Positions 4,060 through 60,297 of a DNA stretch of 64,000 nt are shown one piece after another. The DNA comes from Camelus ferus. Taxonomy: Eukaryota. The stretch covers positions 57,476,001 to 57,540,000 of the forward strand of contig NC_045696.1 of the NCBI RefSeq assembly GCF_009834535.1. The letters are read 5' to 3'. A program made the position numbers and the translations under genes. Within the stretch, counting starts at the first letter, position 1; each line of letters starts with the position of its first letter. The notes under the pieces are model-generated. The model searched no databases and was not told the DNA's origin. It was given only the letters and a program-made list of their open reading frames with translations.

Positions 4060-5200
4060 GTTTGTCTCCGTGGCCGTGCGGTTACTGCCTCCACGGATCA
4101 CTGTGAAGGAAAGAAGTGAAGAAGGCAACCCAATCTAGTTGCAAACGAGCCTAAATATCTGCAGCTCCTAACTCTGAACCTTTTTCCCGTCTTTCCCCCA
4201 ACCCCCCAACCCCCACCCCCACCCCTGCTCTCTGTCGCGGTCCTAATACCACCGGGAACTTGCTCTGGAACATAGTCAGAAGACGACTGCTGAGGTAACG
4301 GCGTCGCTCGGGTCAGGTCCAAGGACCGCGGAGCTCTACTCCAGATTCTAGACCCCGCTTTGGCGCTGCGAGGCCTTGGGCAAGACACCAGGCCTCGTGC
4401 CCAGGCCCCGCCCCTCCCCAGGCCTCAGTTTCCACCCCAGATCTCCACAGAAAGGGCGTGGAGCAGGCCGACTCTTCTCTTAAGAACGCCTAAATGCCAG
4501 GTCACTTGGTCCAGAAGCCAAGTATCCGGGCCTCCCGGTACCCCGGGACCCTCTGCTTCCCTAACTGGCACCTCAGGTCCGCTACCTCATTCCCGCTTCA
4601 CGTTCCTCCACCAAAGGACCCGACTCCCACCGCGCACCTCAGAAGCGCGGCCTTCTTCGGGCGGCGTGCGTCTCAACGCGGGAAGTCGGGCGGGGCTACG
4701 GGACCAGGAGCCTCGGGGCCAAGGGGCGGGGCGCCCTCTCCAGGCAGCCAATCAGCACGCGAGGGGCGCCGGAGGGGCCGCGCTTGTCCGGCGCGGGGCG
4801 GGGTCTGTGGTGGCTGCCCCGGCTGCAGCAAGTGCAGCTGCTTTAGGCTGAGGTGGCAGATGGTAATGAGCGCTGGTGGCCGAAGCCAAGTCGGAGCTGG
4901 AGGATAATGATGAATGGAGTAGCGAGACCCTCGCATATTGACAGTCGCGAGCGGATTCTCAAGTTAGGCGAGAGTTTTGAGAAGCAGCCGCGCTGCGCCT
5001 TCCACACAGTGCGCTGTGAGTACGGACGACGCCGGGAGGGAAAAGGGGGAGCTCTGGTTATGCGGGTGCAGAGAGACAACCCTCCCCAAGTCGTGTTCGC
5101 ACATACCTTCTTATTCTGAAGGAAAGTGGCTGCCCAACGTGATCCACTGCCTTGTCCCGCGTCCTAGGGTATCGGTGGAAGCAGCTGCGTGGAGCAGCTG
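4060..5200. promoter_or_regulatory. CpG island / bidirectional promoter shared by IQCB1 (-) and EAF2 (+)
   Basis: Sharp GC/CpG enrichment against an AT-rich background. ETS-like CGGGAAGT at 4679-4686, GC boxes at 4688-4695, 4723-4731 and 4795-4803, CCAAT box at 4748-4752. No obvious TATA box. Confidence 0.9.
4910..5015 (+). CDS. EAF2: ELL-associated factor 2, coding exon 1 (an in-frame ATG also exists at 4907)
   Basis: MNGVARPSHIDSRERILKLGESFEKQPRCAFHTVR matches the EAF2 N-terminus. Donor GTGAG at 5016; 106 nt. Confidence 0.95.
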
Positions 5201-11002: not shown

Positions 11003-11154
11003 AAGGGAGGAGGATATAGCTCAATGGTAGAGTATGTGCCTAGCCTGCATGAGGTCCTGGGTTCAATTCCCAGTGCCTCCATTAAACAAATAAATGAATA
11101 AGTAAGTAAACCTAATTACCACCACCCCTCAAAAAAAAAATAAATATTTAAAAA
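11003..11154 (+). mobile_element. tRNA-derived SINE (camelid Vic-1-like)
   Basis: Pol III A box TAGCTCAATGG, B box GGTTCAATTCC, A-rich tail; TSD AGAACTGTGGATC at 10990-11002 and 11155-11167. Confidence 0.9.
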
Positions 11155-35398: not shown

Positions 35399-35541
35399 TT
35401 TTTTTTTTTTTTTTTTTTTTTTTTTTGGAGAGGGAGGTAATTGTTTATTTATTTATTTACTTGGTGGAGGTACTGGGGATTGAACCCAGGACCTTGTGCA
35501 TGCTAGGCATGCACTCTACCACTGAGCTATACCCTGTCCCC
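35399..35541 (-). mobile_element. tRNA-derived SINE (Vic-1-like), antisense
   Basis: Reverse complement of the 11003 element (GGGATTGAACCCAGG, CTCTACCACTGAGCTATA) with a 28-nt poly-T tail. Confidence 0.9.
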
Positions 35542-42714: not shown

Positions 42715-42761
42715 GAAATGATTTGCAGCTGAGTGAATCAGGAAGTGACAGTGATGACTGA
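42715..42761 (+). CDS. EAF2: EAF2 last exon, coding part
   Basis: ttttAG acceptor, (R)NDLQLSESGSDSDD-TGA, the EAF-family C-terminus. Summed exons from 4910 give 789 nt, i.e. 262 aa plus stop. Confidence 0.96.
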
Positions 42762-44840: not shown

Positions 44841-46924
44841 TTAATAAATGAAACATATTTCACCCATACATTTTTTTTAAAAGCCCAGCTCCACTCTTTC
44901 CCCCGTTATTATTTCCCCCATAAATGAAACATGTTCTTAAAGATTTTTTTTATGGATTGAATACCTACTGTATCATTCTCTATACCCCTTAAGGGAAAAC
45001 ATAAGTAGTTTAGAGAATAATGAAATAATATCTCCTTTGCTCATGTTATCTCCTTATTTGATGCATTTTCGGATGTTGAAATGTAGGGAGCCATGGATGA
45101 GACAAGTTCTCAGATGTGAGGTTCTCTGTCAGAACCATCCTAACATGACTCTAAGCACATATCTTTTTTTCTCCCAGCTTTAATGAAATATAATTGACAT
45201 ATAACATTGTGTAAGTTTTAAAGTGTACAGTGTGATGATTTGAAACGTGAATATATTATGAAATGATTATTAAAGTAAGGTTAGTTAACATAAGCTCATA
45301 TTCTTTCAGTTTGACCTTTCTGAGTGGTTTGATGAGACTGATGATAATATAAGCATGTAAGTAGGAAAATTAAGTTGGCTACAAAGGAACAAAAATCAGT
45401 GGGCTCTGAACTATTCCATACCTCTGAAGTTAGTAAAGCTGCGTCTGCACAAGGATATGAGTGTGACCTATGAATTATGTATCCACAGTTTGGTAAGAAG
45501 GCATTCTTAGACATGTCAGAATTCAGGAATTATATCATTCACATACTACTCCTATAATAATTACTCCAGTAATTTCCAGTTTTCTTAAGAGATGAATCAA
45601 AATTAACAGCTCAAGAATCAAAAAAAATCATAAAAAATGTATTCTAAAAAGATTGAGAGCTCGCTCCTTCATGAGGACTCTCTCAATTGGTAGGAGTAGG
45701 TAACACCCATGCACAGCAAGGCTGTATGTAGGAATGACCTCTTCAGTGCTGACCAGAGGGGAATGGCCAAGAGTTTAGCCCTACTAGTCTGAGGTTGCAG
45801 TCCTAGTGAAGGCAATGGTATTTCGGGCTCAGGCTGTGTACATGTGCAGCAGAGACCAAAAATGCCCCAACCTATTCACACGCTCCTGCCCAACCCTGAG
45901 GCTATATAAACAGCCTGTACATTGAATGCATTCTCCTATACACTCAGATTCATCAGCAAAGGACAAAGCCTCACTGGCACAAGGTATCTGACCATGACCT
46001 CCACCCAGTCTGTGACCACTCAGAGTAATACCTGCTACTTCACTTCTACCTCCCAAATCTCACTCAAGTTCTGATCTAGATGATTCTGGGAAGCATAATT
46101 CCTAGCTTAAACTAAGACAACAATAGCCAACCCTAAAACTGAAAACAAACCAAATGTCCTTCAACAAAAAAATGGAGAAATAAATTGTGGCATATTTGTG
46201 AGTTCTACTGAACAATGGAGAAAAGAATCTTGTTACAGGCAACAACAGATGAATCTCACAGACGTAATGTTAAGTAACAGAAATCAAACACAAACGTTGT
46301 AAATGGCATTATTTCATTTTTATGAAATTCGGAACAGACAAAGCAAACCTATGGTGATAGAAGTCAAAATACTGGTTACCACGAGGGAGGATAGTTTGGC
46401 TGAGAGACGGAAGGGAAGCAGCAGTTATTACTCTGAAGGGCTTCCAGCACTGAGGTGCTAGAGATACATATTTATTTATATTATTACAAATATGTATGTT
46501 TATTTTATTTATTATAAATATATAATGTTATATATAATGTATTTATTATAAATAAGTATTTACTACAAATATCTTACCTGAGTGGTGGTTGTGTGAATTA
46601 CACATACTTAAAATATGATGGAGTTTTACACTTAAGATTTGTGCCTTTTAAAATCCACAAACGAAATCAATAGAAAAAATATTTGCAATGTCGAGGTTGA
46701 AAGCGTTAATATAAAAGTAGATCTTACAAACTTATAAGAAAGGGACAAATGACTCAATAGAAAAGTGGACAAAGGAAATGAATAGGCAGTTCTAAAAATT
46801 ATAGAAACATACTTTTGTCAAGCAGTCTCACTTCTGGAAATATATTCTACAGATACATTTGACTTACTTGCAAGGTTATTATTGCAGTATTATAATTACA
46901 AAAGACTCAAAAATCTGAATATCG

Positions 46925-47900: not shown

Positions 47901-47961
47901 AAGCACATGTTCTCTTTTAATTTCATATTTGCCTCCCCTCTCTGACTATATTAATATCTAT

Positions 47962-48459
47962 TGTGAATGGAAAATACTGCAAGCCATATTAGTAAACAAA
48001 GAATGCTGAAACCATCAAGTCATCAAGCTGCCATCACCCCCTACAGTGAGCTCAGGGTGCAGACAAGCAGGCAGCCCAGCATCTGCAGCCCTCCACAGTG
48101 GTGCCCTCTGAGAGAACTCAGAATGTGAGAGGACAGGATACTGGCCCTAGACAGCTAGGTGCTTGTCAAAGGAATGATTTCAGTGAACCCAGACATTTGC
48201 TCCTTCCCATACACAGAAAAGCACTAAATTCTTTACCTTGAGATGTCTGTTTTTCATTAGTTAACAGTAATCTTTTAATGTTCTGACTACCTGGTCTTTG
48301 TTGTAAAACTCCTGTATATCCTGGCTTCTCCCCTACCTCTTTGGAGCAGTTCCTCAGAGCGATCTGAGAGGCTGTCATTCTGGGCTGAGTCCTCAGAAAT
48401 ATCCACAGAATAAAACATAACTCTCAATTTTTAGGTTGTGCGTTTTATTTCAGTCAGCA
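47962..48459 (+). repeat. ERV 5' LTR
   Basis: Begins TG, ends CA, contains AATAAA near its 3' end; roughly 93% identical to 57264-57756 by manual alignment. Confidence 0.95.
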
Positions 48460-48463
48460 GTTT

Positions 48464-48484
48464 TGGTGACCATTGTGAAGGGAC
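48464..48484 (+). promoter_or_regulatory. ERV primer-binding site, degenerate tRNA-Arg type
   Basis: TGGTGACCATTGTGAAGGGAC just after the LTR resembles the Arg PBS TGGCGACCACGAAGGGA, with CpG decay and a 3-nt insertion. Confidence 0.6.
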
Positions 48485-49437
48485 CCAGAGCAGACTTCTG
48501 TCCTTCACCTGAACTCTACAAGGATCCAGAACCTTGGTACCAGCCGAGGCCTCTTGCACCCATCCTCCTCCTCTGTGAGTCCTGATTCTAGATTCTCCCG
48601 TTATTGGTTGATGATCCTAAGTTTTATTTGGTGGTGTTAAAATCCTCTCTGGAGGAGTAGGTTATCCTTGAAACTTAGTTTCAATAAGGGATACCTGGGT
48701 TATCCTCAGTGAAAGCCACTAGGAAGATTTGTGCTCAGTTTAGACATTGAGTGGGTTATCCTCAGTTAAAAGACTGAAAAGACTTTGCTCAGTTAAGAGA
48801 ACACTGAGTAGGGTTGGACTGAGTAAATAAAGGAAGGCTGGCCTGTCATTTTTCCTTGAACTGGCTACTTTAATAGAGTTTGTTGAAATAAAACTGAAAT
48901 CTTATGAGGGCCTTTCACCTCTGAAGATGGGACTCCTCCTTCTGGCCAGCAACAGCTTTCTCAGGTGACTGAGAAACTTGCAGGAGTGATGGAGGCAAAG
49001 ACCTCATGCCATGCAACTGTCCCTGTAGGGAAACCCACTCATTTTAATTAAAATTTGCTCTACCAGGGACTCGAATAATAATTGGTCATTCAGTGATCTG
49101 AGCACCCATGGTGGTCTTATACCACCAAAGGGGGAACCTGAGACATAGGAGGGAGCTGAGACAACTCTGGGTAAAAACCTAGAGGAGTTAAGCTTTCAAG
49201 CAGCACACGAGCCCATCACACCATCGTCACTAGCAATTTTATTTCAACAAACCAACCTCAGAATGGGTAATAAAGTTCTCAAAACCAAAGAAAAAGGAAC
49301 AACAGATTGCCAGCCTCCAGCTAACACCCCAGCCAGGTTCATATACAATATATATGGGAATTATACTTGTAAATACTTACCTGATTGGGGAAATTATATT
49401 AAAGGAGGTCTCAACCTAAAATGGACAAATTGGGGCT

Positions 49438-50168
49438 TTTATTTTTTTCAATTGAAGTATAGTCAGTTACAATGTGTCAATTTCTGGTGTGCAACATAAT
49501 ATCCCTGTCATACATATATTCATTTTCATTAAAGATCATTGTAAGATATTGAACATAGTTCCCTGTGTTATACAGGAGAAATTTTTTAATCTATTTTTAT
49601 GTATAGTGGTTAACATGAGCAAATCTCAAACTCCAAAATTTATCCCTTCTCACCCCCTTTCTCCAGTAACCATAAGATTGTTTATTATGTCTGCGAGTCT
49701 GTTTCTTTTGTAGATGAGTTTATTAGTGTCCTCTTTTTCCTTTCTTTTTTTTTTTTTTTTGATTCCACATATGAGTGATATCCTATGGTATTTTTCTTTC
49801 TCTATCTGACTTACTTCACTTAGAATGACATTCTCCAGATCCATCCATGTTGCTGCCAATGGCATTATTTTATTTCTTTATGGCTGAGTAGTATTCCATT
49901 GTATAAATATACCACAACTTCTTTTTTTTTTTTTTAACATTTTTTATACCACTACTTCTTTATCCAGTCATCTGTCAGTGGACATTTAGGTTGTTTCCAT
50001 GTCTTGGTTATTGTACACAGTACTGCTGTGAACATTGGGGTACATTTACCTTTTCACATTAGAGTTCCCTCCAGATATATGCCCAGGAGTGGGATTGCTG
50101 GATGATATGATAAGTCTATTTTTAGTTTTTTGAGGAATCTCCATACTGTTTTCCATAATGGCTACATT
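49438..50168 (-). mobile_element. 5'-truncated L1 inserted in ERV gag
   Basis: L1 3' UTR and ORF2 tail ([20 protein letters not shown]); TSD CAAATTGGGGCT at 49426-49437 and 50169-50180. Confidence 0.93.
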
Positions 50169-51180
50169 CAAATTGGGGCTCTTTTGATATTCCAAAACTA
50201 ATATTTTTGCATATGTAGCTAGAAAAAGCCAGCTATAAAATGAAAGACTGAATAGAATGCTTATTTTCATTGATATTTAGAAGCTTCTAAAAGGGGAAAT
50301 GATAAAGTGACTTCTTTGCAGGAAACCAGCAAAAGGTTGCTTGAAACAACATTGGAATTTTAAGAAGTCACTACCATTAACCCTGTCTCTCCCTCTGCTC
50401 CTCCTGTATAATCTCTTTTATCTGAATTGCCCAATCCAGAGGCTATTCCCCTCTCTCTTCCATCAACCCTGCCTACTGCCCCTCCCCCTTCCCCAGAAAA
50501 GGAAGACATAAAATCAGAGGTAATCATAGCTCCCTTTAGGGAGAAACCCATTACGGGAAGAGGATAATCATCCTCAGTGCTTACGTATACACCCCGGACC
50601 CAAGCAGAATTTAGAGATTTAGCTAAGGAATTTTCCGAACCTAGCCAAGATCCGCTAGGATTTGCTAAGGAATTTGAGCTAACCATCCAAACCTATGAGC
50701 CTGAGTTTTCAGATATATATAAATTAATATAGCTATTAGTTTCTAAAAGTAAAACAAAGGAATGGGTAGAGAAAGCAGGGTGGAAAGATCCCTTAACAGA
50801 TTTTTATTTACATAGCCCACAAGCTTGAGCTGAATGCAAGGAATTAGCTCATAAATTACTTAGACTTATCCCAGAGCTTTTACCAAAAGCCATATATTGG
50901 TCAAAGATTCAACAATGCAAACAAAGGCTAGATGAATCAATTCCGGATGACTATAAGAGTTTTGAGAAAACTTATAAACAATATTCAGGTATGACACCTG
51001 AATCATTCTCTAACCACCAAAACAACCCTTTACTTAACCCTTCCTTTTTAGAAGGCATAGGTGAAGAATTGGCTACTCTAATTAAAAGACACAATTTAGG
51101 TTGGTCTGCATTACATACAAATGCCCTTGTCACACTGGCCAACCAAATTTCCAAAACCATTAGGAGGAAGGAAAGGAATA

Positions 51181-51750
51181 TGTTGTGTGACACAACATGG
51201 CAGCCCATTCAGGGAGCCAGTGTGGTCACCAAATGTGTGCACCAAATGTTGTGGGCCGCAACAGGGCCAGTTGGTGGCATGGTGACATATAGTTTAGTAA
51301 AAACAATTTACCAGAGGTTAAGTATAAGAATAGAAAGGAGTTTATCAGGGTACACTCTCATAGACCACAGTGGGCCACACAGACAAGAGGTGTCTGTGTG
51401 AGTGTCGGGGTAAAGACCAAGGGAAAGCTTCAGTAGTTATGCTGCTGTAGGCAACAGCGGGCCACACAGGCGAGGGGTGCCTGCATGAGCACCAAGGGTC
51501 GGTTATTGGGGTCTTTTATAAGGTAGGGTCAGAAGGTGCCTGATCAATTTGTGCCCAAGCCTCTGAATGGCCGTAGGTGAAGTAAGAGGTTTAGGGTCCG
51601 TGAAGGGCAGTGGGATTTGACTCTGATAAGGTAGGCATTACCTGAGGCTATTAGTTCGTTAGGGGAAACATGCCCAGTTAAGAATGTACTTTATCTGAGA
51701 GCCCAGAAATGGGGGTCATTGGACTTTGAAGGACGTTAGTTGGCCCAACA
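51181..51750 (-). mobile_element. Solo LTR of a second, unrelated ERV family inserted in gag
   Basis: 570 nt with TGTTG...CAACA inverted termini; 5-bp TSD GAATA (51176-51180 and 51751-51755); minus-strand TATAAAA at 51520-51514; no similarity to the host LTRs. Confidence 0.88.
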
Positions 51751-51955
51751 GAATACATCTATAAAAATTATGAACTTCCAATTGTGCCAATTAAGTAGCA
51801 AGGTCAGTCGATGATTAACAAACCCCCATCCCCATGACTGACAGAGGAAACTAGCATTTGCTTTTACTGTAAAAAAACAAGCTACCAAAAAAACGACTGC
51901 AGAAAAATGAAAAAAGATTTTGAGGACAGGCTAGATTTCAGACCAGAATACTGAG

Positions 51956-54900
51956 TTGAACAAAATTAGGGCTGCCCCAAGGGAACACTGGGGAGCTTTC
52001 ATCTTCTCTAACACTCTGGGAGAAGTAGAAATGAAAATACAGGGAGAAACAGTTAAGGCTCTAATAGATACAGGGGCCACGTTTTCAGTTTTAAACCCTA
52101 CCAAAATCAAAGGCTCCCTCCCTCAGAGTAATACTTCAATGCAAATGGTGGGGGTCTCTAATGCAATATTAAGACTTTTAAGTCATTATCTTTAGAATTT
52201 TACTTAGGAGAACTTTTTCTAGTAGAAAGTGTCCCTATTCACCTAGTAGGCAGAGATTTATTAGAAACTTATGAAGTCCATATCTCTTTTACTCCTAAGG
52301 GAGAATGTTTTTAGACCTAAAAGAGCAATCAGATTTTCTTCATCATACAGTATCTGTGACCCATGATGAAGGTGATGTAGAACAAGATAAATTGTTAGGC
52401 TTAGTACCTGAAGAATTATGAGCATTTGATCCTACTGACATAGGGAGAATACATTCTGCATCACCGATTAAAATTACCATAGATCAAAATATGCCCCCGC
52501 TGAATATTCATCAGTACTCATTGAGACAAGAGACTATAGAGGGAATAAACTCCTTAATATCAGCTTACATTAAGAAAGGGCTTATTGTCCCTTGCACCAG
52601 CCCTTGTAACACTCCCATCCTGCCAGTTAAAAATTCTAATGGCAAAGGTTGGAGATTTGTACAAGATCTGAGGTCTATTATTATTCCTGCTATTATTATT
52701 CCTCGTCATTCTGTAGTATCTAATCCCCATACCTTACTGTCCTATATCCCTAAAAAAGTGATCTCTTTTCTTTGATCTCTTCTGTGTAATTTTTAGTGTA
52801 CCTGTACATCCTGATGACCAGTATCTTTTTGCCTTCACTTGGAATGAATGACAATATATGTGGACTGTGATGCCACCCACAGGGCTACACTGAAAGCCCC
52901 ACTTATTTTTCTCAGATATTAAAAGCAGACTTAGATTATCTAGTTTTTCCTCATAAATCAGTTTTGATACAATATATAGATTATTTGCTGTTATGTTGAG
53001 ATTCTTTGATAAATAGCCAACAAGATACCCTATACTTGCTTCAGAAGTTAGCTTCTAAGGGTTATAAAGTGTCCAAAGAAAAATTACAACTTTGTAAAGC
53101 TAATGCAGAATATTTAGGACATGTGATGTCAGGAGGGGCTTTTAATTTACCTAGACAGAGTAAAGGGCATTTTAGCTTTCCCTGACCTTAAAACAAAAAG
53201 ACAACTAAGGGGATTTCTAGGTCTTGCAGGTCACTGCAAGAATTGGATTCCAAATTTTTCTTTAGTGACTCAACCACTATATAGTTTACTTAAACAAGAC
53301 CAAACTGAACCTCTTTGCTGGAAAACAGAACATTCTAAAGCCATGGAGACCCCAAAGGACCTCCTGGCAAAGGCCTTGGCTTTGGGGCAACCAAATTATG
53401 ATTTACCTGTTTTTTCTCTTTGTACATGAAAACAAGGATGCTGCATTAGGAGTATTAACCCAACAACCCGGTGGTTACTACCAACCAATAGGATATGACA
53501 GCCAGCAACAAGCCTCAGTAGCCAAAGGCCTCCACCCTCGTCTCCAAGCTGTCACAGCAACAGCTATGCTGTGTCAGACCACAGAAGATAGTCATGGGCC
53601 ACCCTCTCAGTCTTTGTTCCCCATTTTGTGGAAGCCTTCCCTAAGTTCCCCTTTCTGTGGAAGCCTTTCTAAACTCTCATCACACACAACATTATTCAAC
53701 AAGCCATTTAACTTCCCATGAGATTGTCTTGCTCTCACCAAACGTAACTCTCCACAGGTGTAACAAACTTAATCTAGCCACCTTGCTCCCAGAAGAATCA
53801 GACGTCAATAATGAAAAGCATGATTGTACTGTTGTAACTGACAATCTTTTTTATCTCCCAGGATTGATCTTCGAGAAAGCCCAATAGATAATCCTGATTT
53901 TATATTATTTATTGCTGGTTCATATCTGCGAGGACCTCATGGAAAGTACCAGGCTGGCTATGCCATTGTTTCTCTAGTGTCCATCCTTGAAAATGCTCCC
54001 TTGCCTAATGTCTCTTCTGCCCAACAGGCTGAATTAATAGCTCTGACAAGAGACTGTCAAACTGACTATACTATAAAAATATATATTAAAAAGTTGGCAA
54101 AAGGAAAATCTGCTAGTATTTACACAAACAACCGCTGTGCTTTTGGAGTTGAACATGACTTTCTTTGTTAGGCTTTGGAAACAAAGGAGATTTTTAGCAT
54201 CCTCAGGACAGCCCAACAAAAAAGGGGAACAAGTGGCAGAGTTATTAGATGCAATTCTGCTGCCAACTGCACCTGCTATTATTAAGATGCTGGGTTACTT
54301 AAAGGCTGACACTGCAGAAGCAAAAGGACAACAGCTTTACAAAGCAACAATGACCAACTAACCATTATCTTTCCCTTTCAGCTTCCCAGTAACCTTACTG
54401 ATATGTTGTTAAAATTTCAGAGTATGGCACCCAACTAAGAAAAGGACATCTGGATGCAGAAGGGAGGAAAATTCAATTCCAACAAATAGCTATGGATAGG
54501 CCCAAATAGGGAGCCTATCCTTCCATTTGGAGCTCAGTACTCACCATATTTTACAATATGTTCATGAATTAACCCATTGGAACCCAGATATGATGGTGTT
54601 TTGGGGTAACAAATATTTTTGGAAACCTTCTCTCACTATAGCTCGGAAGGTCTATTCGAGATGCAATACTTGTCCAAAATATAACCCAGGGAAGCCATTA
54701 CATAGTTCTCAAGGAAATTTTCCATTACCAATTTTCCATTTCCTTTTGAAATGCGGCAGATTGATTTTGTACAAATGCCTCCCTCCCAGGGTCATCAGTA
54801 TGTTCTTGTTATGATTTGTATGTTTTCACACTGCGTTGAGGCATTCCCATGCAGAAGAGCCATGGCACAATCAGTAGGAAAACTGATTTTAGAAAGAGTG

Positions 54901-55549
54901 ACTCCTATTTGGGAAGTCCGTTCAGAACTACATAGTGATAGAGGAACTGATTTTACTGGACAAATTTTTAAAGAAATTTGCAAGCTTTGGCCAATATGCA
55001 ACATTTCTATCGTGCTTATCATCCCCAGCCTTCTGGGTTAATAGAAAGGACAAACGGAAAAATTCAAACCCAATTGGATAAAATTATGGATGCTTATTCC
55101 TCACATTGGCCTAAGGCCCTTCTGTTGGTTCTCCTCGACCTCAGATCCACCCCTTTTGGAAAACATCATTTGTCTCCCTTTGAGATTATCATGGGGAGAT
55201 TAGATGAAGGATTATATAAACCTATATTATTAAAGGGGGATATATGACATTATTGCAAATGTCTATTAGCTAGACATTCTAAGTTTGTTTCTGAAGCTAA
55301 TCTACCTCAAATGAAGATCAGATACCTCATGACTTGCAGCCAGGAGATTATGTATACTGGAAAAGACATCATTTAAAGGACTGCCTCCAACCTAAATGGA
55401 GGGGCCCTTATCAGGTTCTCTTAACTAGCTCATGTGCAGCAAAACTAAAGGGAGTTGACTCTTGGATTTGTATTTCCCACCTGAAAAGAGCCCCTGCACC
55501 AAACTGATCTGTATAGAGAACTGCTGACCTCAAACTCATCTTAAAGTGA
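51956..55549 (+). pseudogene. pol: ERV pro-pol (protease, RT, RNase H, integrase), multiply frameshifted
   Basis: Protease ALIDTGATFSVL. RT SPCNTPILPVK...WRFVQDLR with catalytic YxDD decayed to YIDY (~52973). RNase H SAQQAELIALTR. Integrase HELTH..C..C, QIDF, HSDRGTDF, YHPQPSGLIERTN and C-terminal WRGPYQVLL. Confidence 0.93.
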
Positions 55550-55637
55550 CTCTCTAATAGAAAAGAAACATCAATGCCTGGATGAGAAGAAGACATCAGA
55601 AGTAGACAGCTATCCCAAGATGCCAGACCTGACCCGT

Positions 55638-57013
55638 ATGTTTATCTATAAACTTTTCTTCTTAATTTCTTGTACCTTTGCACACAAATCAAATGTTTTT
55701 CTATCATGGTCATGATCCTATGCAATTTTTAGAAATCAATCTAACTGCTGGGCTTGTAGTCAATTACCAGTATCCAGTACTTCTGGGTTACCTTGGTGGG
55801 TTTCTCCTCTCCAAGGCTCTGATTGGATGGCCCTTAGAAAATTTATATTAGAAGAATGAAATTACAGTTCTATCAGGGCCACTGCTGATAGAACTAGATG
55901 AGATCCCCTTACTTGGCCAGTCAAACATGCTTCATACTTATTCTGACCCTGGCCATAATTATGAGTTTTCCCTTACTCAAGCTTAGTCAGAAAAATAAGC
56001 TAAATTTCAACCCCCAAATTTAACCTCTTATCTATTAGAAGGGACCTTCCCTTAGTTATGGGATGAATTTATTTGGCTAACACCAGGCCATGGTCACCTA
56101 AGTTTAAAAGCCCCACTCTGTTGGGTAGAGTTAAATCATACTAAAGATAATCAGCCTATCAACAGTAGAAAACTAGCCTGGGTGCCTTATGAAAAATGCC
56201 AGTATGTCATTTCCTTTAAAGGTAATGACTGGTATGGGACAGATTGGGTCAGGTGACCAGAAATACACTGGGTCACACCTAATGGAACTCAATGGCTTTG
56301 TGAGTCCAACTTTGGCCCTGGCTTCCACCAGGGTGGATAGGAAGATGTACTTTAGGATTCCCTTGGGCTAGAGGCCACTTACTTGATAATTTAGATACAA
56401 CCCCATCAAACTTAACCATCAAGGCAAGCCCAGTGGATCAAGAGATCTGTATTTCACTGGTATGATCATTTAGCAGCTATTTTTGTGCCTTCAGTAAGAC
56501 TGGAAGATGTGATTTCTCATATTGGAGCCTTAACAGAATTCACCCAAAAGGCCTTAAATGACAGCAGTCAGGCTGTTAGCTTACTGAATTCTGAGATCTC
56601 TATGATGAGGAAAGCTGTGTTACAAAATCTTATGGCCCTTGACATCCTTACAGCATCTCAAGGAGGCACCTGTGCCATAATTCAAACTGAATGCTGTGTT
56701 TTTATACCAGATGAGTCCTCCAACATAACACATTTAATGACCCACATGCAAAATCAGATTGCTCCTAAGATGACCCACTTCCTAGCCTTGGTGATCTTTT
56801 GGGAAGCTGATTTGGTTCTGGAAGCTCATGGCTTAAATCCCTACATGTGACTTTATTAACGTTACTAGCTGTATTACTTACATCCTGTCTATTTTATAAG
56901 ATTGTTTTCTCTCAGATTTCCCAATGTGTAACTAGACCTCCAACAAGATTAACAATGGCTAAACACCTTGAGCAAATAGATCACATTTATAACCCTGCAT
57001 AGTATAATTGTGA
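55638..57013 (+). pseudogene. env: ERV env, gamma-type, disrupted (boundaries approximate)
   Basis: Signal-peptide-like start and SU NCWAC (CxxC) motif. Degenerate furin site WIKR/S. TM immunosuppressive domain LQNLMALDILTASQGGTC and CX6CC (CAIIQTECC). In-frame TGA at 55713-55715 and later frameshifts. Confidence 0.9.
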
Positions 57014-57263
57014 TGTGTGATTCTAGGTATGGGAAGGAACAGTGAGGGGAAAACATTTACTGGATCATAATAAACTAGTAAGACAGATGATCCAGAGAAT
57101 TTTTGGTTATCAACAGGACTGATCCCAAAATTTGGCACTTTGAGTGGCATGTCAACAGAATCTTCACTTAATCTAGGAATGAGACTTCCTAGTGCCATGG
57201 GACAAAATTGGTCATGAAATGTCTCCCAAAATACTGGTCGAATTTAGGACCAAGGAGGAGCAC

Positions 57264-57756
57264 CGTGAATGAAAAATACTGCAAGCAACATCAGTAAACA
57301 AAATGCTGACTCCACCATGTCATCAAGCTGCCACCACCCCCCACAGTCAGCTCAGGGTGCAGACAAGCAGGCAGCCCAGCCTCTGCAGCCCTCCACAGTG
57401 GTCCTCTGAGGGGACTCAGAATGTAAGAGGACAGGATACTGGCTTTAGATAGCTAGGTGCTTGTCAAAGGAATGATTTCAGTGAGCCCAGACATTTGCTC
57501 CTTCCCATACACAGAAAAGCACTAAATTCTTTACCTTGAGATGTCTGTTTTTCTTTTGTTGACAGTAATCTTTTAATGTTCTGACTACCTGGTCTTTGTT
57601 GTAAAACTCCTGTATATCCTGGCTCCTCCCTACTTCTTTGGAGTAGTCCCTCAGAGCGATCTGAGAGGCTGTCATTCTGGGCTGAGTCCTCAGAAATATC
57701 CACAGAATAAAACATAACTCTCAACTTTTAGGTTGTGCATTTTATTTCAGCCAACA
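57264..57756 (+). repeat. ERV 3' LTR
   Basis: Direct repeat of the 5' LTR (initial TG reads CG here), preceded by purine-rich AGGACCAAGGAGGAG, ends CA, followed by TSD CTAT. Confidence 0.95.
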
Positions 57757-58225
57757 CTATCATTTTAGAGCCGCAGTCTCCTTTTTGTACACAACTGTAG
57801 ACTATCATAATCATTGACGTCACAAATATTTTTTACTTTTCTCACTGATTTAGGTTCTTCTACTTTTCTTATATTTTTTGTCTCTGAAGAGTTTATACTC
57901 TCTTCAAGACTTGCTTTTCTCTTTGGCCTTTTGCCTTTTATCCGCTATCTGATTCAACTTGGCAAAACTAATGGTGTGTAAGAGCCACCTTGATAAGATA
58001 GGACGGCTCTAGAATAGGTCTTGGAGCCTGGGGTTCTAGTCCTTTCTTGGTCCCTCTGAACTCTTATGCAATATTCTTCAGACTAGACTAGCAGAGGGAT
58101 TTCAAACCAGTGTTCACCAAACCCATGTTGTAAGAATTACTGGAGATGCTTATTAAAAATACAAATTCTTAGATCCCTATTTAGATCTATTGAATAAGAT
58201 TTTTCAAAGGAAAGGCCTATAAGTT

Positions 58226-60192: not shown

Positions 60193-60297
60193 ATGAATCC
60201 CTTCCAGAAAAATGAGTCCAAGGAAACTCTTTTTTCACCTGTCTCCACTGAAGAGGTACAACCTCGACCCCCCAGCTTTCCAAAGAAGCCATCTCCG
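60193..60297 (+). CDS. SLC15A2: Solute carrier family 15 member 2 (PEPT2), coding exon 1
   Basis: GCCATG then MNPFQKNESKETLFSPVSTEEVQPRPPSFPKKPSP, donor GTGAGT; 105 nt. Confidence 0.96.

Follow-up and report, generated by a model that had tools for sequence, protein, structure and literature searches.

A decayed, probably epsilon-like class I provirus between EAF2 and SLC15A2 in the genome of Camelus ferus

Structure of the provirus between EAF2 and SLC15A2

We analysed a window of 64,000 nucleotides (nt) from Camelus ferus (NCBI RefSeq assembly GCF_009834535.1, contig NC_045696.1, positions 57,476,001 to 57,540,000 of the forward strand; all coordinates below are those of this whole stretch). 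A preliminary description of the window had reported a gamma-like endogenous retrovirus (ERV) between EAF2 and SLC15A2. The alignment of the long terminal repeats (LTRs), Pfam searches, and exon matches bore out a provirus with paired LTRs and gag-pro-pol-env between these two genes. The complete provirus occupies positions 47962-57756 on the plus strand, and its retroviral part comes to approximately 8.4 kb once later insertions are discounted.

The element is flanked by the target-site duplication CTAT on the plus strand, found as described before, with its left copy at 47958-47961 and its right copy at 57757-57760; identical 4-mers on both flanks are expected by chance with a probability of ca. 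0.007 at the local composition. The 5′ LTR (47962-48459, plus strand) is 498 nt long, has TG...CA ends, and carries AATAAA at 48409, and the 3′ LTR (57264-57756, plus strand) is 493 nt long and carries AATAAA at 57706. The 4-nt duplication and TG...CA LTRs of class I ERVs are thus present, though the first letters of the 3′ LTR are CG rather than TG. A primer-binding site (PBS)-like sequence (48464-48484, plus strand) begins 4 nt past the 5′ LTR and, by motif comparison, matches the Arg/Trp class imperfectly; this class is also found in PRIMA4 and HERV24. The site reported earlier as Arg-like is therefore present, but its identity is equivocal, since this motif class is Arg according to ReTe and Trp according to the Leipzig tRNA set. 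The polypurine tract (57245-57263, plus strand) was likewise found, but it is weak and degraded, with purines at 14 of the 19 positions.

Between the LTRs, a long leader (48485-49262), in which GTGAGT at 48575 resembles a splice donor, is followed on the same plus strand by gag (49263-51969), which starts with MG, ends in TAG, and was recognized by an eye-made match to the Gag of HEPSI3 and PRIMA4. No match was obtained when the gag pieces were compared with Pfam and PDB, and the single degenerate CCHC knuckle near 51856-51912 has no Pfam match either, while a language-model search returned Gag_p30 look-alike clusters at 0.91. The pro region (51970-52330, plus strand) is frameshifted and contains a DTG motif (Pfam RVP, 2e-6). 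The reverse transcriptase (RT) and RNase H region (52331-54350, plus strand) includes a piece matching the RT of murine leukaemia virus (MLV) in PDB at 2e-12. The frameshifted integrase (54351-55550, plus strand) has a GPY-type C-terminal module (Pfam rve, 2e-8; MLVIN_C, 3e-14) and a weak Pfam match to Integrase_H2C2. env (55638-57010, plus strand; end approximate) is of the PABL/syncytin-Car1/PRIMA4 type, with TLV_coat above the Pfam cut-off and syncytin-1/2 as the best PDB matches. Among the 16 frame scans against Pfam, four gave matches above the cut-off (RVP, rve, MLVIN_C, and TLV_coat); dUTPase and G-patch gave no match in these scans, an absence that is weak on decayed DNA.

The env translation contains CWAC (CxxC) in the surface subunit (SU), and CX6CC together with the immunosuppressive domain LQNLMALD in the transmembrane subunit (TM), the gamma-type Env features of class I ERVs. 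With the 4-nt duplication, these motifs uphold the earlier assignment to class I. The TG...CA ends and the 4-nt duplication are those of an integrase-type insertion, and the gene order is full.

Loss of coding capacity and later insertions

All genes are disrupted, in agreement with the preliminary description: 25 stops were counted in 1934 codons over 26 separate pieces, whose bounds were set by eye, and homology switches frame repeatedly along the provirus (20 segments). gag has 10 stops in 457 counted codons, frameshifts, and two nested insertions; env has eight stops in 438 counted codons plus frameshifts. The catalytic YxDD of RT is not intact, and RT/RNase H contains several frameshifts. 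Two small tandem duplications were also observed in pol (52675-52703 and 53629-53670).

One of the two insertions in gag is an L1 3′ end (49438-50168, minus strand) with a 12-nt target duplication, which is 65-88% like other L1 ends within the window. Inside it, positions 49908-49960 hold a poly-T stretch between two near-identical 14-nt words; this resembles the insertion of a bare poly-A tail and forms a third level of nesting. The other is an LTR-like element of 570 nt (51181-51750, minus strand) with TG...CA ends, a 5-nt duplication GAATA, a TATA-like box on the minus strand, and two 42-nt internal repeats. A possible reading of this element is a class III-type LTR to which a short piece of internal sequence is still attached, and the element is probably younger because its CpG observed/expected ratio (0.28) is above that of its surroundings. 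Near its 3′ end it carries CCACAACA, which is LTR-end-like, and the PBS-like word TTTGGTG then occurs twice ahead of the final CA; no second copy of the element was found within the window. In RNase H, approximately 33 nt (54060-54093, plus strand) resemble an L1 3′ tail and are 72% complementary to the nested L1 end. Three later retroelement insertions have thus entered the provirus, and its coding capacity is wholly lost.

Affinities of Gag and Pol

To place the polymerase, we took two RT blocks, 35 and 39 residues long, and counted by hand their identities to the puteins given in print in PMC4724089 (supplement 3). Over these 74 residues, identities were 55 for PRIMA4 (27 + 28), 53 for HEPSI3 (28 + 25), 41 for HERV4 (22 + 19), 39 for PABL (23 + 16), and 36 for PRIMA41 (22 + 14). 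MLV RT was identical at 30 of 75 positions of the overlapping stretch, which does not bring the provirus close to MLV and the gammaretroviruses proper; opossum Pol (50%) was closer. The named long Pol matches came from opossum, crocodile, turtle, lizards, and fishes, and these hosts fit a basal position in class I. Judged by eye against the same printed set, Gag tracks the Gag of HEPSI3 and PRIMA4 motif by motif from matrix to capsid, and the Gag of PABL and PRIMA41 shows no resemblance to it. Adenine makes up 31.4% of 7459 internal nt; reported values for PRIMA4, HEPSI2, and HEPSI3 are 30.3-33%, with PRIMA4 itself at 30.3% (PMC4724089). Both PRIMA4 and HEPSI3 are members of the HEPSI ('human epsilon') supergroup, for which a basal position in class I close to walleye dermal sarcoma virus has been reported (PMC4724089), and such elements have been termed epsilon-like yet outside the genus proper (Gifford et al. 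2018, PMC6114882).

Several observations weigh against this placement. An RT tree of database matches (23 rows, 96 columns) gave no strongly supported set containing the provirus, so that the assignment of Gag and Pol rests on the hand comparison, which was made by eye with printed, truncated puteins and not as a tree with references. The provirus has a single knuckle and PRIMA4 mostly two. PABL also reaches 30.5% A, and the A-bias therefore discriminates little. Finally, none of the 1330 candidates in a gag search proved to be a relative at E 1e-5.

With these points taken into account, the provirus very probably derives from a single integration into the germ line by an epsilon-like class I retrovirus that belonged to the HEPSI supergroup and was the counterpart of PRIMA4 in camelids. 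By sequence comparison, it combines a HEPSI-type gag-pro-pol with a PABL/syncytin-Car1-type env; this combination is already known in human PRIMA4 and is not a new mosaic. The label 'gamma-like' in the preliminary description was right as to class I but too coarse, as the hand counts put Gag and Pol with HEPSI/PRIMA4 and not with HERV9/W, HERV-I, PABL, or MER41.

Env and its relatives in other mammals

Over 240 amino acids (aa), env is 49-50% identical to syncytin-Car1 and 39% to syncytin-Rum1 (14 matches among 194 candidates), and the best TM matches are 72-74% identical (32 matches among 112 candidates). The nearest named relative is a protein of the right whale Eubalaena glacialis (XP_061039941.1, 'PABLB member 1 Env polyprotein-like'), which is 69% identical in a capsid piece (49 of 71) and 73% in env over 197 columns. 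The leader shows a weak similarity to the same element (34% over 141 aa, 48945-49346). In an env tree of 22 rows, from which six of the 27 fetched proteins were omitted for short cover, the provirus grouped with XP_061039941.1 and one unnamed protein with a support of 100/100, outside the syncytin-Car1, rodent, horse, and Rum1 groups.

Judging from this relative in both gag and env, the virus lineage extends beyond camelids. The earlier claim of lineage specificity may hold for the insertion, but it does not hold for the virus lineage, since the right-whale element is the nearest relative in both genes. Although XP_061039941.1 is annotated as Env, the leader and capsid of the provirus are matched by its N-terminal 150 residues; either an internally deleted copy has fused gag and env in frame, or the gene model joins two pieces.

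A PABLB-like env of Camelus bactrianus (P0014) was considered as a member of the same family and rejected, as it is only 40% identical and falls in a Rum1-related group. On the same sequence grounds, this env type is represented in camelids by two lines or more. P0014 (467 aa) is a long open env that stops before the membrane anchor. It shares an Arg-rich N-terminal leader, which we take to be betaretrovirus-like, with the deer protein P0010.

Dating and occurrence of the insertion

Realignment of the LTR pair reproduced exactly the 31 substitutions and three indels counted earlier: 493 aligned columns contained 23 transitions, eight transversions, and three gap events, giving a p of 6.3% and a Kimura two-parameter distance (K) of 0.066 (bootstrap 0.044-0.092). 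With two generic rates (r), the age K/2r is 15 million years (Myr) (10-21) at 2.2e-9 per site per year and 22 Myr (15-31) at 1.5e-9. At 2.5e-8 per five-year generation, the rate of Ibrahim et al. (2021, PMC8605555), it is 6.6 Myr. The earlier estimate of ten Myr or more is supported as an order of magnitude, with 7-22 Myr depending on the rate. The split of the camel and llama tribes has been put at 11 Myr by fossils and at about 25 Myr by mitochondrial DNA (PMC1939714). Because the LTR age straddles this split, the clock cannot place the insertion before or after it.

We also looked at the occurrence of 408 words sampled from env, the 3′ LTR, and the flank. In 18 of the 23 listed runs, from six studies and under three coded species labels, 76-85% of the words were present; five runs were added by label only, and one of the holders may be the source of the window itself. 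As the 3′ junction is held under three coded species labels, the insertion is common to three close species.

Uneven distribution of stop codons

Expected stops were calculated from 3.3% divergence per copy since integration, as given by the LTR clock. gag and env together have 18 stops in 895 codons against 3.7 expected, whereas pro-pol has seven in 1039 against 3.9 (Fisher p 0.014). When well-aligned codons were counted automatically, 16 stops were present in 1301 codons against 5.1 expected, eight of them in env. The excess in gag and env without one in pro-pol would be explained by a partly dead template. It is quite possible, though somewhat short of an even chance, that the copied RNA came from an older endogenous template in which gag and env were already decaying, and that it was packaged by proteins provided in trans or was recombinant. 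Some results tell against this idea. The Fisher test was post hoc, the pieces were bounded by eye, and 14 of the 25 stops are TGA, which is partly CpG decay outside the model. When TAA and TAG only are counted, 11 were found against 5.5 expected (p 0.026), and at the upper LTR bound 11 against 7.7 (p 0.15).

Neighbouring genes and other elements in the window

The last coding exon of EAF2 lies at 42716-42761 (plus strand), with upstream exons near 4930, 12280, and 22150, and Pfam EAF was found on two EAF2 exons; the end of EAF2 is 5.2 kb upstream of the provirus. The first coding exon of SLC15A2 lies at 60193-60297 (plus strand), and exon 3 of this gene matches PepT2 at 2e-26. A distance of 2.4 kb separates the end of the 3′ LTR from the SLC15A2 start codon, and both are on the same strand.

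A GC-richer stretch at 45660-46100, 1.9 kb ahead of the provirus, has a CTATATAAAC box and resembles the remnant of another LTR. Farther upstream are two related simple short interspersed elements (SINEs) derived from tRNA-Ala(AGC), at 11005-11150 (plus strand) and 35400-35541 (minus strand), both of which are called tRNA by ARAGORN and Rfam; the former has a clear target duplication. Camel vic-1 is a simple SINE, but SINEs of similar build are carried by rodents and armadillos (PMC3531059), so that such SINEs do not in themselves identify the host. The L1 ends in the window appear artiodactyl, and neither ruminant nor pig SINEs were noticed.

Discussion

The features of Env and the PBS raise the question of whether the provirus is instead a gamma-type element, either of the HERVFRD-like supergroup (PABL/HERV-R(b), PRIMA41/MER41, HERV1_artiodact) or of HERV9/W. 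Its env is PABL-like, RefSeq names the relatives 'PABLB member 1 Env', PABL has an Arg PBS and one knuckle (PMC4724089), and the best PDB match of RT is MLV RT. PDB, however, contains no class I RT closer than that of MLV, and Pol separates the candidates, with 36-41 of 74 residues for PABL, PRIMA41, and HERV4 against 53-55 for HEPSI3 and PRIMA4; moreover, Gag shares no motifs with PABL and PRIMA41. We regard a gamma-type origin as highly improbable. Another matter is whether the family is already curated in Repbase or Dfam, as an alpaca/camel ERV1/LTR or a cetartiodactyl-wide entry, in which case only the phylogenetic label would be new. Alpaca LTR entries with the suffix _Vpa are known. By 2011, at least 10 older families of alpaca were listed in Repbase (PMC3183009), and LTRharvest gave 1,142-2,455 putative full-length ERV1 per camelid genome by Dfam/Repbase homology (PMC8605555). 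On the other hand, a search of the full-text literature found no paper naming a camelid PRIMA4- or HEPSI-like family, and no protein more than 80% identical to the env or RT pieces was found. We give prior curation an even chance.

The age and the later fate of the LTRs also admit other explanations. The insertion might be far older than the LTR clock indicates, gene conversion having made the two LTRs alike again, and the site might be shared by both tribes or by other artiodactyls. The total of 25 stops in 1934 codons against 7.6 expected agrees with this, as do TAA and TAG alone, from which 6.6% per copy (3.3-11.8%) follows, double the value from the LTRs, and a CpG observed/expected ratio at genome background (0.08 in the LTRs, 0.12 in the interior). 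About 40% of dromedary LTR elements (1,886 of 4,473) were scored as converted (PMC8605555), and cetacean epsilon-related ERV lineages are older than about 36 Myr (PMC8297934). However, the LTR differences are spread along the LTR, with no significant heterogeneity (p 0.085), no identical tract of unusual length (p 0.15), and no converted tract seen, and the pro-pol stops fit the LTR clock (seven against 3.9; TAA and TAG three against 2.9), whereas a greater age should raise all genes. We consider a much older, converted insertion distinctly unlikely. Since LTR conversion would raise all genes alike, the pattern of stops suggests that a partly dead template fits best. A host use of the LTRs, with the 3′ LTR as promoter or enhancer of SLC15A2 or the AATAAA of the 5′ LTR as a distal 3′ end of EAF2, would agree with the position and orientation of the 3′ LTR, which shares its strand with SLC15A2 and lies 2.4 kb ahead of the start codon of that gene, with the intact AATAAA in both LTRs, and with the junction kept under three species labels. 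Neither LTR, however, contains a tract conserved beyond chance, and the runs in which the 3′ part was present, from a search directed at DNA, included no RNA run. SLC15A2 is an old gene for which a promoter of its own is expected. Such use is very unlikely in our judgement.

From class I biology, a life history can be proposed for the epsilon-like provirus. Reverse transcription would have been primed on an Arg or Trp tRNA, Gag-Pol would have been made by read-through of the gag-terminal TAG at 51967, and Env may have been translated from a spliced RNA using the donor-like site at 48575. The sequence after the gag stop gave no significant read-through signal (fold -21.9 kcal/mol, z -1.56; 13 of 200 shuffles were equally good). 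The provirus would now be a neutral fossil whose LTRs were presumably last identical ca. 7-22 Myr ago. A fuller scenario, which we put forward as speculative and rather doubtful as a whole, is an uncurated camelid family, epsilon-like with a syncytin-Car1-type env, whose virus was still infecting germ lines during the Miocene; tylopods and baleen whales would have been reached separately, long after their split, and this copy would descend from a template with decayed gag and env, leaving a trace of complementation or recombination.

The provirus is a well-preserved but ordinary viral fossil of a virus group known from primates. Epsilon-like class I ERVs have been described mainly from primates, horse, carnivores, and whales, and we know of no close living counterpart of them in mammals. 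A complete camelid copy with both LTRs adds a datable point for these elements, and since its age range includes the camel/llama split, the locus can readily serve as a presence/absence marker. The copy further places the envelope clade behind syncytin-Car1 on a HEPSI backbone outside primates. Nothing functional is encoded, and only its position would allow the 3′ LTR a host role with respect to SLC15A2.

Comparison with known elements

The closest known system is PRIMA4 (Repbase PRIMA4-int/PRIMA4_LTR; Tarlinton group PE1). As far as its published descriptions could be compared, it has the same type of Gag and Pol (RT 55 of 74), a PABL-like Env with the domain LQNxMALDILTA and the same SU motifs (subgroup PRIMA4_a/HEPSI2_b), an Arg/Trp-class PBS listed as (W), an A content of approximately 30-31%, and a GPY module. 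The divergence of its canonical LTRs (6.6-13.9%, n = 3) is of the same order as the 6.3% found here. In contrast to the camel provirus, PRIMA4 has a primate host and mostly two zinc knuckles, and approximately one quarter of the RT residues differ; thus, the provirus is a distinct virus. HEPSI3 has the closest Gag by eye, an RT identical at 53 of 74 residues, one knuckle, and an A-rich sequence, but differs in its MER70-type Env (LnNRiALDYLLA) and Leu PBS. Gag zinc knuckles are reported to number one in HEPSI1-4 and two (or one) in PRIMA4 (PMC4724089).

Syncytin-Car1, BERV-P env, PABL/HERV-R(b) env, and syncytin-Rum1 belong to the same env clade as the provirus, and BERV-P env has been grouped with Car1 (PMC3590765). 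They are open or co-opted genes, whereas the provirus env has its eight stops and frameshifts. PABL differs further in its HERVFRD-like Gag and Pol: the provirus has a PABL-type Env without a PABL-type Gag or Pol.

The right-whale element differs from the provirus by approximately 30% of its amino acids and has a host of another order. In XP_061039941.1, gag runs directly into env, and that copy looks internally deleted. In cetaceans, 159 epsilon-related ERV lineages (numbered 124-282) have been reported, all predating the split of toothed and baleen whales ca. 36 Myr ago (Zheng et al. 2021, PMC8297934). These lineages resemble the provirus in their broad Pol class and cetartiodactyl hosts but were present before ca. 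36 Myr ago, and the word 'camel' is absent from the main text of that paper.

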